From NCBI GenBank assembly GCA_031549865.1, contig JAVBPE010000018.1, positions 20,208 to 84,207 of the forward strand: a stretch of DNA of 64,000 bases, in the 5' to 3' direction. This document shows positions 1,202-7,618 of this stretch, piece after piece; positions within the stretch are counted from its first letter, which is position 1, and every line of letters begins with the position of its first letter. Under the pieces are notes generated by a model that ran no database searches, had not been told where the DNA came from, and saw only the letters and a list, made by a program, of their open reading frames with translations. This DNA is from Anaeroplasmataceae bacterium. Its GTDB lineage: Bacteria; Bacillota_I; Bacilli_A; Acholeplasmatales; Anaeroplasmataceae. Both the position numbers and the translations under genes were made by a program.

Positions 1202-1882
1202 GTGTTTTATGAAGTAGACGGGCACAAAATAGAAGTGGTTATTAAAATCAAGAAAACAAATAAACATATTTATTTAAGATTTAAAGATAATACTATTTTT
1301 ATAACTTCATATGTTAAGTTAAGTAATAATGATCTTTATAAATTACTTAACTCAAACTTAAATACTATAAAAAAGTATATTAGCAATCAAGAAAAAGTAG
1401 AACAAATAAATTCACTTCATCTTTTTGGTTTATCTTACGAATATGTATTAATAGAATCAAATAAAAATAATGTTTTAATTGTTGATGATAAAATTAATAT
1501 ATATACAAAAAAATTAGATAATGATTATATCAAAAAAATAGTAGAAAAATTTTATATTTTAAAAATAAAAGAAGTAATTGAATTAAGATTACCATATTAT
1601 AAAAAACTATTTAATGATCTTAATACGAATGTTAATCTTAAATATAATTACGCTAAAACTTTCTTTGGTAAATATAATAAAAAATTGCATGAAATTACAT
1701 TCTCAGGTATTTTAGCTAAAGTAGATTACAAATATATTGATTATGTAATATGTCATGAACTTTCGCATATAAAATATAATGGACATCAATCTGATTTCTA
1801 TAATTATTTAGAAACAAAATTAAAAGAATCAAAGACACTTCAAAAAGAATTGAGAAGACTTAAATATAAAGATAAATTTTAA
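1202..1882 (+). CDS. YgjP/DUF45-type (SprT/WLM-like) metal-dependent hydrolase
   Basis: GTG start. C-terminal 'VICHELSHIKYNGHQSDFY' HExxH block is typical of the YgjP family. Confidence 0.7.
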   Translation: MFYEVDGHKIEVVIKIKKTNKHIYLRFKDNTIFITSYVKLSNNDLYKLLNSNLNTIKKYISNQEKVEQINSLHLFGLSYEYVLIESNKNNVLIVDDKINIYTKKLDNDYIKKIVEKFYILKIKEVIELRLPYYKKLFNDLNTNVNLKYNYAKTFFGKYNKKLHEITFSGILAKVDYKYIDYVICHELSHIKYNGHQSDFYNYLETKLKESKTLQKELRRLKYKDKF

Positions 1883-1949
1883 AAAGTATTTGATTTTTTT
1901 AAAATTTATAGTATAATCAAAATTACGTATCGTTTTAGGAGGATATATC

Positions 1950-2423
1950 ATGATTAATAAAGAAGAATTTGAATTAACAGAAGAAGGTAAACAAAAATTA
2001 GAGTTAGAATTAGAAGATTTAACTACTAATCAACGTACTCAAAATATAAATGCATTACAAGAAGCACGTGCGCAAGGTGACTTATCTGAAAATGCGGATT
2101 ATGATGCAGCAAAAGAAGATCAAAGAAGAATTGAATCTCGTATTTTAGAAATTACTAATATTTTAAAGCATGTTAAAATTATTAAAAAAGATTCATCATC
2201 TAAAGTATCTACTGGTAAAAAAGTAGCTATTAAATACTTAGAAACAAATAAAGAAGTTACATGTGAAATAGTTGGAACAATTGAAGCTGATCCATTTGCA
2301 AACAAGATTTCAAATGATTCTCCACTAGGAAGAGGAATCTTAGGTAAAGAAGTATCTGATACAGTTTTAATTACAACAGAAACTGGAAGAGAATTCAGAG
2401 TTCAAATTTTAGCAATTGAATAA
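1950..2423 (+). CDS. greA: Transcription elongation factor GreA
   Basis: 157 aa. Has an N-terminal coiled coil and 'QGDLSENADYDAAKEDQ', characteristic of GreA. aggagg RBS lies 7 nt upstream. Confidence 0.95.
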   Translation: MINKEEFELTEEGKQKLELELEDLTTNQRTQNINALQEARAQGDLSENADYDAAKEDQRRIESRILEITNILKHVKIIKKDSSSKVSTGKKVAIKYLETNKEVTCEIVGTIEADPFANKISNDSPLGRGILGKEVSDTVLITTETGREFRVQILAIE

Positions 2424-2445
2424 TTGTTAAATATATTAATGTTAT

Positions 2446-2471
2446 AAAGGTACGTATGAGTACCTTTTTTG
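2446..2471 (+). terminator. Rho-independent terminator after greA
   Basis: Stem aaaggtac (2446-2453) pairs with gtaccttt (2460-2467), followed by a T run. Confidence 0.7.
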
Positions 2472-2535
2472 TATTTTAATTTGAAATACCTCTTTTAAAA
2501 ATATTTTTTTGAATTTTCGCATATATCTAATATAA

Positions 2536-2565
2536 TTGGACATAATATTACTTATATGTTATAAT
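2536..2565 (+). promoter_or_regulatory. Sigma-A-type promoter of the HTH/ATPase/TOPRIM-like cassette
   Basis: TTGGAC (2536-2541), 18 nt spacer, TATAAT (2560-2565). An imperfect inverted repeat (tgttata ... tataaca) overlaps and follows the -10, a possible operator for the HTH protein. Confidence 0.5.
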
Positions 2566-2602
2566 TTGGTTATATATAACATTAAATATTATTGGAGGGT
2601 GT

Positions 2603-2890
2603 ATGAGTAAAAATTTGCAAGCGTATTTAGATGTTGAATTGTCTAAAGTGAATTTGAAGAATTTAGAAAACGAAATAAAAGAAGAAAATAATATTGTTAT
2701 GGAATTTGCACAGCAATTAATAAAGTGCCGTGAAGATTTAAATATAACGCAAAAAGAATTATCGAATATAACAAAAATTCCACAAACAACAATAAGTAGA
2801 ATAGAAAACGGAACAACTAATCCAACACTTTTGATACTTCAAAAGATTGTTAATGGCTTAAATAAAAAAATTAAAATAGAAATCAGGTGA
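2603..2890 (+). CDS. XRE-family helix-turn-helix protein (95 aa)
   Basis: 'ITQKELSNITKIPQTTISRIENGTTNPTLLILQKIVNGL' is a classic HTH_3/XRE motif. Its stop is 4 nt before the next start. Confidence 0.8.
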   Translation: MSKNLQAYLDVELSKVNLKNLENEIKEENNIVMEFAQQLIKCREDLNITQKELSNITKIPQTTISRIENGTTNPTLLILQKIVNGLNKKIKIEIR

Positions 2891-2894
2891 AGAA

Positions 2895-3989
2895 ATGTCT
2901 ATTTATATAAATGAATTAAAAGTTAATAACTTTCGTGGCATAAAAAAATTGGATTTAAAAAATTTGAGAGATGTTAATATTATTGTAGGAGATAATAATG
3001 TTGGTAAGACTAGTTTGTTGGAGTCTATTCTGATATTGAGAAATCCAATGGATTTTAATAATATGATTAGAATATCTATAAATAGAGAACAAAATTATAG
3101 ATATATGTATCCCTCTAATAGATTTGAAAGTTTACTTAATCTGTTTAATAAAAATAATGATTTAACAATTGATTTATCTGCTAAACTTAATAATGAAATT
3201 GTTTCATTTAATTTAAATGGTGAAATTAGACAAATCATGATAGATTTGAAAGAAGTAAGGGGATATTATGGGAAGAAGTCTGAAACTGTAGTTGAAACAA
3301 GCGAATTGCTATGCAACCTGAAATATAATGATGGCATTTTAACAAAATATCAATCATTTAAGTTTAATAGATTTACTTCCATTACTGGTAGGGTTCTTCC
3401 TGATGAATTTATAAAAATTATTTATTTGTCACCGACAGATCACTTGAAAACTTTTCGCTTTACTACCATTTTACGTGATAATAATTACAAATCAATTTGT
3501 ATAAAAGTTTTACAAATTTTTGACGATAAAATAGAAGATTTATTGCTTTTAGAGGATGACGTTACTGGTGAAATGATTAACTATATATATCATAAAGAAC
3601 TTGGGAATATGCCTATATCAACCTTTGGTGATGGTATTAAAAAAGTCATTTCACTTTCTAATGCGATAGCTTCGGCAAGTAATTCCATATTATTAATTGA
3701 CGAGTTAGAAACAGCTATTCATGCAAAGTATTATGATGATATATTAAGATTTGTTTTAAAAGCAGCAAAACAATTCAATGTGCAATTATTTATTACTACT
3801 CATAGTATTGAAGCATTAGATGGTTTATTAAGTACCCAAAAAGAAAATGGTGTATTTATTGATAATAATAATATTAGTGTAATTACATTGAGAAAAGATG
3901 AAGATACTAAAACTACATTATCAAGAGTTCTAACGGGGAAAGAGGTTTATGATAATAGAGAAAAGTTTAATTTTGAGGTTAGATCATGA
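2895..3989 (+). CDS. ABC-type/AAA ATPase (AAA_15/AAA_21-like, OLD/AriA-type)
   Basis: Walker A 'GDNNVGKT' (2988-3011), signature-like 'FGDGIKK', Walker B 'ILLIDELETAIH', H-loop 'ITTHS'. Confidence 0.8.
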   Translation: MSIYINELKVNNFRGIKKLDLKNLRDVNIIVGDNNVGKTSLLESILILRNPMDFNNMIRISINREQNYRYMYPSNRFESLLNLFNKNNDLTIDLSAKLNNEIVSFNLNGEIRQIMIDLKEVRGYYGKKSETVVETSELLCNLKYNDGILTKYQSFKFNRFTSITGRVLPDEFIKIIYLSPTDHLKTFRFTTILRDNNYKSICIKVLQIFDDKIEDLLLLEDDVTGEMINYIYHKELGNMPISTFGDGIKKVISLSNAIASASNSILLIDELETAIHAKYYDDILRFVLKAAKQFNVQLFITTHSIEALDGLLSTQKENGVFIDNNNISVITLRKDEDTKTTLSRVLTGKEVYDNREKFNFEVRS

Positions 3990-4711
3990 ATTCATTAATA
4001 ATGTGTGAAGGAAAAACAGATGCAATTTTAATTAGTTATGTATTGTGTAAACTTTCTGGTTGGAAAATAAATAAAGCGCCTAAAAATTTTGATTTTAAAA
4101 TTGAAGAAAGAAAGAATCAATCTATTTATTGGTATACTAAAGAAGATGATTGGTTACTTATTTGTGGTGTAGGTGGAGTAACTGAATTTGCTAATTTTTT
4201 TAAAACTAACATTGAATCAATGCAATTAAATACAAATTTTTTTTCTAAGCTAGTTATTATTGTTGATAAAGATGAAAATACAAATCATAAAATAGAAAAA
4301 GATTTTTCTGAAAATTTTAATAATATCAGTAATAAGTTCGAACATAACCAATGGAATAATAACACATATATAGATTTATTTGGAAAATTAGCGGTAATTG
4401 ACACTTTGATTATTATTATACCAGCTGACAAAACAGGAGCTTTGGAAACGGTGTTATTAAATGCTATAGCTGAAAATGAATATGATCGTTTGATAGTTGA
4501 AAAAAGTATTGCTTTTATAGATGAGAATCGTAGTAACGTTTCAAAATATTTCACACAGAAAAGATTAGAATTGAAAGCAAAATTGGGAGTTGTTTTTGCT
4601 GTGTTATCTCCTGAAAAAGTATTTTCTTTTATTGATGAATTATTAATTTCGATTCCTTGGGAGAATTATGCACTAATAACTGATACATTTAAAAAAATAA
4701 TTCAACTATAA
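3986..4711 (+). CDS. TOPRIM-like small protein (DUF4435/DUF4276/RloB-type partner of the ATPase)
   Basis: ATGA start/stop overlap with the ATPase gene. N-terminal 'LIMCEGKTDAIL' (Glu codon at 4007-4009) plus 'IIVDKDEN' (4265-4276) match the E ... DxD layout of TOPRIM domains. Confidence 0.55.
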   Translation: MNSLIMCEGKTDAILISYVLCKLSGWKINKAPKNFDFKIEERKNQSIYWYTKEDDWLLICGVGGVTEFANFFKTNIESMQLNTNFFSKLVIIVDKDENTNHKIEKDFSENFNNISNKFEHNQWNNNTYIDLFGKLAVIDTLIIIIPADKTGALETVLLNAIAENEYDRLIVEKSIAFIDENRSNVSKYFTQKRLELKAKLGVVFAVLSPEKVFSFIDELLISIPWENYALITDTFKKIIQL

Positions 4712-4757
4712 AAAAATTTAATTTTTATAGTTAAAATATAAAGTTAAAAATAGTTAT

Positions 4758-4792
4758 AAGACCTATCGGCAAAATTTAGTTAGGTCTTTTTC
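4758..4792 (+). terminator. Rho-independent terminator after the three-gene cassette
   Basis: aagaccta (4758-4765) pairs with taggtctt (4781-4788), followed by a T run. Confidence 0.7.
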
Positions 4793-4924
4793 TTTATAAA
4801 AAAATATCTTTTTATTTAAAAAATGTCCATAATATGCAGTTATTTCACACATTTATAATATATTTATCCTACTTTTTTTTAATAAAATAATTCATGAAAA
4901 TTAAGAAAAAGGAGTATTTATAAA

Positions 4925-6796
4925 GTGGCCGCAATAATAAGAATTGCTAATTTAAAGAAAACCTATAATATTACTAATACCCAAACTCAAGAAGTTTTAA
5001 AAGGAATTGATGTTGAGTTTAATAGTGGAGAGCTGGTAGCATTATTAGGTGAAAGTGGATGTGGTAAATCAACACTAATCAATATCTTAGGAGGGTTAGA
5101 TAATGATTATACAGGGAGTGTTGTAATTAAAGGAAAGTTCATTAGAGATTATACAGAGTGTGAAATGGATGATTATAGGAAAAAAAGAGTTGGATTAATT
5201 TTTCAAAACTATAATTTAATCCCTCATATGACTTTACTTGAAAATGTTGAGATATCAATGGAAATGTCTGATGTTGAAGAGAAAATCCGTAAAGAAAGAG
5301 CCTTAGATTTATTAAAAATGGTAGGCTTAAACGATCATGCTAATAAACTTCCATCACAATTATCCGGAGGTCAAAAGCAGCGTGTTGCGATTGCCCGTTC
5401 TTTAGCAAATAATCCATCAATCATTTTAGCTGATGAACCAACTGGAGCATTAGACAAAGAATCAGCTAATCAAATATTAAATATTTTAAAAATGATTGCC
5501 CAGTCTGGAAAACTTGTTATAATTGTAACCCATAGCCAAAGAGTGGCGGAGGATTGTAATAGAATTATAAAAATAGATGATGGGATAATTACCTCAGATA
5601 CAAAAAAAGAACGTTTTAAAAATGAAGAGTTTGCTAAGTTTCAAGAACCAAATCCTAAAAATATTCAAACTAAAAATATTTTAAAAATATCCAAAAGAAA
5701 TATTTGGAATAATAAAAATCGTAATATATTAGTCAGCTTTGCAATGTCTATCGGAATTGCAGCATTTATTTTAATTTTATGTCTTAGTCAAGGCTTAACC
5801 AATTATGTTAAAGATTATTATGCCGCTGATAGTATGTCTTTAAATATAACCTCAACAATAAATGGAACGATATCAGATTCAAAAATTACAGCAATAAAAG
5901 AAGTTGATGGCGTAAATACAGTTTATGCAACCCACACAGCATCTAATGCTACATATACTTATAATGATAGTACCAATAGTATTTTTATGTTAAATGAATA
6001 TTATCTAAAATTTGCGCCAACAATGCTATATGGTTCAACAATAACAACTAACAATCAAGTTATTATAAGTGAAAGCTTCGCAAGTACTTTGGCAAATGGC
6101 GGAATAATATCATCTATTGGTCAAGGTTTAGATATAACTTATAATAATATTAATCAAACATTTATTATTAGCGGAATATATGAAGATTCAACTGGATCAT
6201 CTAAATTAAAATGTTATATTAGTAACGAATATTTAAACAATTATTTTACTAATTCTACAAAAACAATTAATACATTATTAGTTACAGTTAGTGATATTAC
6301 CTATTTAGATGCAGTAGCCTCGACTTTAACTAAACAAGGCTTCAGTAATACATTATATGACGACTCATCATCAGTAATTTTAGATTATATTGATTTAGGT
6401 ACAACTGTGTTAACCGGGGTGGCCGCTATTTCAATGGTTGTTTCCGCAATAATGATTTTAATAGTTTTATATATAAGTGTTATAGAAAGAACTCAAGAAA
6501 TTGGAATTTTACGTTCAATTGGGGCTAGAAGAAAAGATATAAGAAAAATATTTATTTTTGAAGCAGGAATCTTAGGTTTAGCTGCAGGAGTAATTGGTTC
6601 AATATTCGCTCTTGTTATAGGAAGTGTTGCGAATTTAATATGTTATTTTTCAACAGGAATATTATTTATCAGTTATAATCCATTATACTATTTAATCGGT
6701 ATTTTATTAACTATAACAGTAAGTGTATTAGCCGGGATAGCACCTTCTAAAAAAGCTTCAGACTTAGATCCAATTGAAGCCTTAAGATTTGAATAA
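4925..6796 (+). CDS. Fused ABC transporter ATP-binding/permease protein (MacB/FtsX-like)
   Basis: GTG start after an aaggag RBS. Walker A 'GESGCGKST', signature 'LSGGQKQR', Walker B 'ILADEPTGALD'. The C-terminal FtsX-type permease has a large extracytoplasmic loop. Confidence 0.9.
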   Translation: MAAIIRIANLKKTYNITNTQTQEVLKGIDVEFNSGELVALLGESGCGKSTLINILGGLDNDYTGSVVIKGKFIRDYTECEMDDYRKKRVGLIFQNYNLIPHMTLLENVEISMEMSDVEEKIRKERALDLLKMVGLNDHANKLPSQLSGGQKQRVAIARSLANNPSIILADEPTGALDKESANQILNILKMIAQSGKLVIIVTHSQRVAEDCNRIIKIDDGIITSDTKKERFKNEEFAKFQEPNPKNIQTKNILKISKRNIWNNKNRNILVSFAMSIGIAAFILILCLSQGLTNYVKDYYAADSMSLNITSTINGTISDSKITAIKEVDGVNTVYATHTASNATYTYNDSTNSIFMLNEYYLKFAPTMLYGSTITTNNQVIISESFASTLANGGIISSIGQGLDITYNNINQTFIISGIYEDSTGSSKLKCYISNEYLNNYFTNSTKTINTLLVTVSDITYLDAVASTLTKQGFSNTLYDDSSSVILDYIDLGTTVLTGVAAISMVVSAIMILIVLYISVIERTQEIGILRSIGARRKDIRKIFIFEAGILGLAAGVIGSIFALVIGSVANLICYFSTGILFISYNPLYYLIGILLTITVSVLAGIAPSKKASDLDPIEALRFE

Positions 6797-6805
6797 GGTG
6801 ATATT

Positions 6806-7618
6806 ATGGCCGCTAAATTAACAAATAAACAAAAACAATCAAAGCGAAAAAAACAAAAAAATAATAAAGTTAAAAAAATGGAGCGTCAAGACGAGCTAGG
6901 GATAAGTAGAAAAGAAGTAAAGGGAGCAATGAGGCCAGAGGTCTTTATCATCTTAAAGATAATTTCAATCATCGCAGTTCCTCTTATGTATCTTTTATAC
7001 TCACCATTTTTAATATTCGCAGTAATCTTTAGTAGTTTATTATTAATATTTGCTTTCAAAACTGAAAAATATATGAATAAATCATATATAAAAAAGAATC
7101 ATATAAAGATTCCTAAATTTGATAGTATAATTGCATGTATTGTAATATTAATTACTGTTTTTGGAACGATTAACTCCTTAAATACGAAAAAGAAAATGCC
7201 AGCTTTTAATATTGGTATGGAAATAAAAATAAAATTAGAAAATACAGGATCATGCCTAACAGGTAGAAGAGGTATATTTAACAATCTTAAAATCTCTAAT
7301 TTTGCGCCAGCCTCTTTACCTGATGGATTTGAAGGCCCAAAACCTCAGCATATGGAAATGGAAGATTTACCAGTTGAAATGCTATTTTCAGTTGTGATAT
7401 CATCGTTAAATTCAGTATTATTAATTTTAATTCCAATTTCAAGTGGATTATCTTTATGGATGTTTATCAAAAAAAGAAAAAGATTAGATAAATTTATGAA
7501 TGAAATAATTTCAGATGATTATGAAGTAATGAGTGATGATGAAATAAAAAGATTATTAATGTTCGATTTAATACCTCTTGAGGATACTACTAATTTAGAT
7601 AATGAAATAAAAGGATAA
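6806..7618 (+). CDS. Hypothetical membrane protein with a Lys-rich N-terminus
   Basis: Starts 9 nt after the ABC gene. Has several hydrophobic segments and no recognisable motif. Confidence 0.5.
   Translation: MAAKLTNKQKQSKRKKQKNNKVKKMERQDELGISRKEVKGAMRPEVFIILKIISIIAVPLMYLLYSPFLIFAVIFSSLLLIFAFKTEKYMNKSYIKKNHIKIPKFDSIIACIVILITVFGTINSLNTKKKMPAFNIGMEIKIKLENTGSCLTGRRGIFNNLKISNFAPASLPDGFEGPKPQHMEMEDLPVEMLFSVVISSLNSVLLILIPISSGLSLWMFIKKRKRLDKFMNEIISDDYEVMSDDEIKRLLMFDLIPLEDTTNLDNEIKG

Follow-up and report, generated by a model that had tools for sequence, protein, structure and literature searches.

A divergent three-gene PDC-M38 cassette with an XRE-family gene and a probable role in anti-phage defence in an Anaeroplasmataceae bacterium

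Here, we analysed a compact gene cassette in a 64,000-nucleotide (nt) stretch of DNA from an Anaeroplasmataceae bacterium (GenBank assembly GCA_031549865.1, contig JAVBPE010000018.1, positions 20,208 to 84,207 of the forward strand), which we call the window and number from its first letter. Three tightly packed open reading frames (ORFs) on the + strand encode a helix-turn-helix (HTH) regulator of the XRE family (2603-2890, 95 amino acids (aa)), an AbiLi-like ATPase of the ABC/SMC-head type (2895-3989, 364 aa) and a DUF3226 protein of TOPRIM-like character (3986-4711, 241 aa), a putative metal-dependent nuclease effector that we refer to as the partner. Judged by sequence comparison, the locus is a divergent member of the catalogued candidate family PDC-M38 and not a new kind of system. 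We propose that it is a horizontally acquired, autonomously transcribed three-gene PDC-M38 cassette which probably acts in anti-phage defence, and we put the probability of this reading, whose defence role is drawn by analogy, at about 0.62. In fuller terms, the best-supported reading sees in it a module of the ATPase-plus-TOPRIM type that is directed against phages or mobile elements.

Results and discussion

PDC-M38 is listed in the supplementary cassette table of a study that compiled 145 candidates for phage defence, single-gene as well as multi-gene, which came from genes situated inside BREX, DISARM and type I restriction-modification (R-M) loci and were left untested (Payne et al., bioRxiv 10.1101/2024.01.29.577857). 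We compared the proteins of the cassette with Pfam-type domain models, PADLOC-DB and NF/TIGR models, and judged non-matches at E ≤ 1. The PADLOC search, which had been recommended in a first-pass annotation made by a model from the sequence of the stretch, placed the pair in PDC-M38, because both proteins match the models of this family full length: the ATPase aligns with PDC-M38A (PDLC04608) at E 2.3e-107, where residues 1-363 cover positions 1-366 of the 367 in the model, and the partner with PDC-M38B (PDLC04619) at E 1.4e-80, where residues 1-240 cover positions 1-239 of the 240. In the family, the A gene precedes an adjacent, co-directional B gene, and this is what the window contains, so that gene order, tight coupling and end-to-end model matches are all shared with PDC-M38. 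Two differences set the locus apart. Unlike the PADLOC definition, which comprises two genes, this cassette and 62 of 69 related loci carry an XRE gene with a recurring upstream palindrome as a third part, and the closest homologues are at most 49-51% identical.

The ATPase retains every ABC catalytic motif. GDNNVGKT (residues 32-39), ILLIDELETAIH (with D269 and E270) and ITTHS (with H303) had already been read as a full set in the first-pass annotation, and among 30 ATPase homologues we found the Walker A residues G32...K38 T39 S40, a signature-like G245-D-G-I-K249, D269 and E270 of Walker B and H303 of the H-loop to be invariant. Profile searches against AAA_21 and AAA_15, likewise suggested at that stage, gave matches to both at E about 1e-18, and the AbiLi model (PDLC02336) is matched at E 2.2e-40 over residues 5-338. 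The AlphaFold2 model of the ATPase has a predicted local distance difference test score (pLDDT) of 86.6; in Foldseek searches its closest matches were PtuA (Septu, retron I-A), the Thermus scotoductus OLD ATPase domain (6p74) and the heads of SMC and Rad50 proteins, with E about 1e-12. Where SMC proteins carry coiled coils, the model has a short beta-rich insert (about residues 90-160), and the middle segment of the protein (about residues 100-160) is its least conserved part (0.22-0.34 versus 0.7-0.8 in the catalytic core).

The partner displays the Glu ... DxD layout that the first-pass annotation had pointed out in the last protein of the cassette: the motif LIMCEGKTDAIL provides E8 (codon 4007-4009) and IIVDKDEN provides D94 and D96. 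All three residues are invariant in 43 partner homologues, together with G9, D12, G64, G151-A-L-E154, R193 and K197. Besides PDC-M38B, the protein matches DUF3226 (PF11536) at E 1.6e-10, above the cut-off, and OLD-like_TOPRIM (PF20469) at E 4e-4, below the cut-off; PF20469 is matched by 35 of the 43 family members, with a best E of 1.5e-6 and over the N-terminal ~28 residues. Its nine PADLOC matches are to PDC-M38B or to RT-Toprim_I-C and to nothing else, the latter at E 1.2e-8, and its residues 3-194 align with positions 356-546 of the retron Ec67 reverse transcriptase (RT)/endonuclease (NF038237) at E 6e-10. In the model of the partner (pLDDT 93.2), E8 comes directly after the first strand (residues 3-7) and D94xD96 stands at the end of the strand formed by residues 88-94, an arrangement known from TOPRIM enzymes. 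A profile-profile comparison (hhalign) of the partner family with a set of OLD-like TOPRIM domains, 14 in all and drawn from same-class genomes, aligned the E, GG and DxD motifs (E 1e-4). Taken together, the profiles, the invariant E8...D94xD96 and the topology of the confident model lend good sequence support to our view of the partner as a TOPRIM-like protein. Among the top 50 Foldseek matches of its model to solved structures, the sole significant one was PH0156 of Pyrococcus horikoshii (2p62, the founding DUF3226 structure; E 1.3e-7, TM-score 0.56), which is also matched in sequence (profile E 1.9e-6); PH0156 is, however, only 16% identical and itself uncharacterised, and adds no mechanism.

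The cassette forms an operon that has a promoter and a terminator to itself. Its upstream neighbour greA (1950-2423; PF03449/PF01272) is followed by an intrinsic terminator on the + strand (2446-2467, an 8-pair stem and then a T-run) that lies outside the cassette, between greA and the cassette promoter, and marks the upstream boundary. Because greA ends in this terminator of its own, the trio forms a separate transcription unit. A sigma-70-type promoter, TGGACA-17-TATAAT with an extended -10 TG, occupies 2537-2565 on the + strand; it agrees with the consensus at 11 of 12 positions and is the top-scoring promoter-like site in the region 2300-5000, in which the total of such sites is at chance level for so AT-rich a sequence (24 versus 21.9 expected). 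Two candidate operators on the + strand accompany it. The first (O1, 2529-2549) is a near-palindrome, AATAT-N11-ATATT, that overlaps the -35 box and whose pattern occurs six times in the window against 1.2 expected occurrences. The second (O2, 2556-2582) is the inverted repeat ATGTTATA-N11-TATAACAT, which spans the -10 box and the likely transcription start and has perfect arms of 8 nt each (2556-2563 and 2575-2582). An extra copy of ATGTTATA is present at 2439-2446, which brings three of the 13 copies in the window within 144 nt.

Within the operon, a 4-nt gap separates the stop codon of the HTH gene from the ATG of the ATPase gene, with AGGTGA just 5' of that ATG, and the ATPase and partner genes overlap in ATGA (3986-3989), 6 nt downstream of a GAGGT. 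Transcription would end at an intrinsic terminator on the + strand (4758-4795), in which a hairpin, AAGACCUA/UAGGUCUU at 4758-4788, precedes UUUUCUUU; the fold of 4705-4800 has a minimum free energy of -17 kcal/mol and a z-score of -2.93. A simple terminator scanner missed this hairpin because of its long loop. In or near the cassette, whose downstream neighbour is a gene for a MacB-type ABC transporter, we found no tRNA and, in an Rfam scan of 1800-5200, no Rfam family. The layout thus agrees in all respects with the first-pass annotation, which had described translationally coupled genes between greA and an ABC transporter, with a terminator of their own and an own promoter bearing an inverted repeat over its -10 box.

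The first gene encodes an XRE-type HTH protein, as had been annotated (PF01381, E 3.6e-14). To place it in a wider context, we used 69 related loci that have a full-length ATPase gene. In 62 of these 69 an HTH orthologue lies directly 5' of the ATPase gene (56 detected by tblastn and six by examining the ORF in front); at most of these junctions the two genes overlap by 1 nt or 4 nt, and an alignment of 50 HTH proteins revealed a shared N-terminal motif, M..Q..LD..L, in addition to the HTH. The A and B genes overlap by 4 nt in 60 of the 69 loci. Within this clade, the XRE protein is integral to the cassette and inherited along with it. We then searched 60 upstream regions for operator motifs, with 60 equal-length regions downstream of the partner gene as control. 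The palindrome AATATR-N(4-14)-YATATT is present 5' of the regulator gene in 32 of the 60 loci versus one of the 60 controls, and 27 of these 32 palindromes are exactly 22 nt long, corresponding to AATATR-N10-YATATT. ATGTT/AACAT half-sites or repeats are found between the -35 and -10 boxes in many related cassettes. The recurrence of conserved palindromes upstream of the regulator gene suggests that the XRE protein autorepresses the operon by binding to the palindromes at the promoter. That the regulator is co-inherited and the operator conserved, both now quantified, is a modest addition to what is known of PDC-M38.

A number of related cassettes (e.g. L031, L032, L038 and L095, among many) have two operator-like palindromes about 130 nt 5' of the HTH gene, a 22-bp AATATA-N10-TATATT upstream and an ATGTT...AACAT inside the spacer of TTGACA...TATAAT. 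This looks like a two-operator arrangement.

The cassette is an accessory, horizontally moved module, since none of 40 relatives from the same family or order carries a partner homologue and since homologous cassettes occur in unrelated contexts. A trio conserved at this locus across related genomes as a housekeeping operon, which the first-pass annotation had named as one of two findings that would refute its defence reading, is not what we observed. The closest homologues are at most 49% (partner) and about 50% (ATPase) identical. A profile search in 1.84 billion protein representatives returned 788 clusters (at 50% identity) of this partner type, which makes PDC-M38 a family of moderate size. 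A set of 80 related loci belongs mostly to Bacillota, namely Lachnospiraceae, Oscillospiraceae, Acutalibacteraceae and Bacilli (Anaeroplasma, Holdemania and Coprobacillus among them), with a few in other phyla. Their immediate surroundings are heterogeneous, 117 flanking ORFs representing 113 Pfam families. Among the flanking genes, a few encode serine recombinases (five) or proteins of defence type (AbiLi-like, GajA, a NucC effector, PDC-S01 and SocA), a tally made without a control, from which we claim no enrichment. At single loci, the cassette adjoins an AIPR abortive-infection gene (Bengtsoniella) or lies near an integrase (Paenibacillus piri). At the cassette in the window, there are no flanking direct repeats, hence no target-site duplication, and no integrase is nearby. 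An empty-site comparison was uninformative, because the relatives come from other genera and have diverged too far: four of them keep the MacB-like transporter and its 270-aa neighbour, while their upstream side differs and greA is not found there.

Having assigned the locus to PDC-M38, we asked how it relates to systems with names and known functions. The first-pass annotation had called it a PARIS/OLD-like cassette. What stands of this is the combination of an ABC ATPase with a TOPRIM-like partner; what does not stand is the tie to those families, as the named models are unmatched and the two parts are unfused. The profile comparisons that had been proposed with it turned out negative: at E ≤ 1, the partner matches none of DUF4435, DUF4276 and RloB, nor AbiLii, AriB or GajA.

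Like PARIS (AriA and AriB), the cassette combines a split ABC ATPase with a small effector of TOPRIM type. However, the match of the ATPase to the AriA models (E 3.7e-19) reflects generic AAA_21 similarity and trails the match to PDC-M38A by about 88 orders of magnitude, and the AriA chain in the PDB is matched at E 1.5e-3 by the C-terminal motifs only. At 364 aa, the ATPase falls about 100 residues short of AriA (464 aa in the PDB chain), the partner matches neither AriB, AriAB nor PF14491 (DUF4435), and nothing about the cassette points to the sensing of anti-restriction proteins. We rejected PARIS because the AriB/DUF4435 effector that it requires is unmatched, in line with the earlier suggestion of a variant rather than a textbook PARIS.

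AbiL of Lactococcus (AbiLi and AbiLii) follows the same two-gene logic of an ABC ATPase paired with a TOPRIM/OLD-type partner (PMC13064643), and the ATPase is of AbiLi type at the E of 2.2e-40 given above. The partner is, however, a DUF3226 protein that matches neither AbiLii nor RloB, and AbiL was rejected on this ground. With OLD and the Gabija protein GajA, the cassette shares the fold of the ATPase, which resembles the Thermus scotoductus OLD ATPase domain (6p74) at E 7.5e-12, and a partner N-terminus that matches OLD-like_TOPRIM with aligned E, GG and DxD. In contrast to these proteins, ATPase and TOPRIM parts reside in separate ORFs, with a stop codon at 3987-3989 between them, and no gene for GajB, a UvrD-like helicase, adjoins the cassette, whose neighbours are greA and the MacB-type transporter gene. 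OLD/Gabija was rejected, the parts being unfused and GajB missing. The C-terminal endonuclease domain of the retron Ec67-type (type I-C) RT-TOPRIM protein gave the longest match to a named domain outside the PDC-M38 family, but the cassette has no RT domain, and the Rfam scan of 1800-5200 matched no msr/msd non-coding RNA (ncRNA). With neither a reverse transcriptase nor an ncRNA match, a type I-C retron was rejected as well.

How, then, might such a cassette act? The mechanism that we propose is modelled on PARIS, AbiL, OLD/Gabija and HEC-01. A dimer of the XRE protein on the promoter palindromes would keep expression low, while the ATPase would form a complex with the TOPRIM-like protein and keep it inactive. 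The variable beta-rich insert of the ATPase (about residues 90-160) might recognise a phage-derived cue, whereupon ATP binding or hydrolysis would free or activate the TOPRIM-like protein. The latter would cut DNA, or tRNA as AriB does, with a metal site formed by E8, D94, D96 and possibly E154. Such cutting of nucleic acids would halt phage replication, probably at the expense of the infected cell.

A variation on this scheme concerns the regulator. The XRE-bearing subfamily may constitute a transcriptionally gated version of the ATPase-TOPRIM kind, in which the regulator would be more than a housekeeping autorepressor and take part in sensing or neutralisation via its M..Q..LD..L extension. 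For example, infection may displace or degrade the regulator and cause de-repression via the 22-bp AATATR-N10-YATATT operators; alternatively, the regulator may directly bind the ATPase/nuclease complex as an antitoxin-like third subunit. We regard this gated version as rather doubtful.

Several of our results weigh against the proposed defence role or the TOPRIM assignment of the effector. Complex formation, trigger and substrate are carried over by analogy from other systems. The hhalign probability of the alignment with OLD-like TOPRIM domains is just 58%, TOPRIM structures of OLD, GajA, AriB, RecR and primase are absent from the top 50 Foldseek matches of the partner, and its model found no match in a library of viral structures. 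A last protein without TOPRIM fold or OLD/AriB-type match had been named in the first-pass annotation as an outcome that would overturn its interpretation. On this point our data are divided, with the PF20469 match, the motifs aligned by hhalign and the strand placement on one side, and the lack of a solved TOPRIM structure among those 50 matches and of an AriB match on the other. In addition, the cassette lies between housekeeping genes and outside defence islands, the closest defence cluster being a prophage-borne type I R-M system that starts ~19.5 kb downstream, and the neighbours of related cassettes are mostly housekeeping genes, too. By tblastn, the partner had no match in 72,556 plasmid and 50,697 phage records. 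The operator copies in the window deviate from the family consensus: compared with AATATR-N10-YATATT, the spacer of O1 is one base shorter and a non-consensus base occupies the Y position. Finally, we found no published phage phenotype for any PDC-M38 member in the full-text-searchable literature, in which no paper deals with PDC-M38 or DUF3226 and the supplement of Payne et al. is the sole mention; papers that tested PADLOC candidates used others than PDC-M38.

Could the cassette instead be a toxin-antitoxin (TA)-like or addiction module that stabilises the DNA carrying it and has no dedicated anti-phage role? The TOPRIM-like protein would then be the toxin, the ATPase and/or the HTH protein would neutralise it, and the HTH protein would autoregulate as in type II TA systems. 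Autoregulatory palindromes at the promoter, tight gene coupling and the sporadic, mobile distribution fit such a module, the HTH protein weakly matches the antitoxin families MqsA (E 1.5e-4), HipB and Y4mF, and PARIS itself acts as a TA pair (PMC13064643). The antitoxin-family matches all lie below curated cut-offs, however, and the plasmid records, where addiction modules are common, hold no homologue. As the family was found through its embedding in defence loci, and as TA behaviour and defence are compatible with each other, we consider an addiction module without anti-phage function unlikely.

A defence module directed not against phages but against other mobile DNA, i.e. plasmids or conjugative elements, would recall Wadjet and some OLD-family systems. 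Wadjet JetC and JetD share the architecture of an ABC/SMC-head ATPase with a TOPRIM-like protein (bioRxiv 10.1101/2024.01.29.577857); the cassette has this architecture in common with them, and the fold of its ATPase matches SMC heads. Against a Wadjet-like role, the ATPase lacks coiled-coil arms and has a short beta-rich insert, and kleisin or KITE-like partner genes are missing from the cassette. The evidence on the target points neither way, and we rate this alternative as distinctly improbable.

That the cassette is an inactive remnant, non-functional in this genome, appears very unlikely to us. The partner gene is truncated or split at several related loci, the HTH protein in the window departs from some positions that are conserved to at least 90%, and the operator in the window deviates as described, all of which may hint at decay; yet all three ORFs run to full length, none of the invariant catalytic residues has been lost, and promoter, ribosome-binding sites and terminator are intact.

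A housekeeping DNA-repair pair of the RecF/RecR kind, to which the RecF match of the ATPase N-terminus (TIGR00611, E 7.5e-11) and the fact that RecR is a TOPRIM protein might point, can be excluded with near certainty, as the match is a 46-residue P-loop stretch of 42.8 bits against a cut-off of 172, a genuine recF (299.7 bits) is located elsewhere in the genome (C16), and the partner gene is in 0 of 40 relatives, with related cassettes in unrelated contexts.

The reading as a PDC-M38 cassette that probably serves anti-phage defence leaves the range of known kinds of systems unchanged. What the locus offers is a compact test case of ~2.3 kb, intact, with its own regulator, promoter and terminator and with clear catalytic residues. 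The conserved operator and the co-inherited XRE gene, in turn, provide a handle on the silencing of potentially toxic ATPase-nuclease modules.

Some further observations concern related genes. At nine of the related loci (L086, L087, L089, L093, L094, L096, L097, L098 and L101), among them the closest relative, a metagenome-assembled genome of Anaeroplasma bactoclasticum (48% identity), the partner gene was partial or split in tblastn. This suggests that the nuclease gene has suffered frameshifts or decay, with the ATPase intact in most such loci. In 3-4 of the 69 loci an immediate neighbour of the cassette is a second ATPase gene of AAA_21/AbiLi-like type, and in five it is a serine recombinase gene. 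The genome studied here also contains a fused gene of the OLD/GajA type on another contig (C25, ~2290-3960; L105, L121). The N-terminus of its 571-aa product carries a RecF-like P-loop, and the product also has a genuine TOPRIM domain of the OLD-like type (PF20469, E 4.6e-17, above the cut-off).

Two neighbouring regions of the window hold proteins that match no Pfam family. Upstream, a 91-aa ORF on the - strand (900-1175) is situated between the genes of a U32 peptidase and a YgjP-like metallopeptidase and shares 15 nt with the end of the U32 gene. Downstream of the cassette, 4925-7618 encodes the fused MacB-type transporter (623 aa; ABC_tran, MacB_PCD and FtsX) and, behind it, the 270-aa protein. 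At least three same-family genomes keep this pair, with identities of 43-60%, and this conservation makes it probable that the 270-aa protein is a partner dedicated to the transporter.

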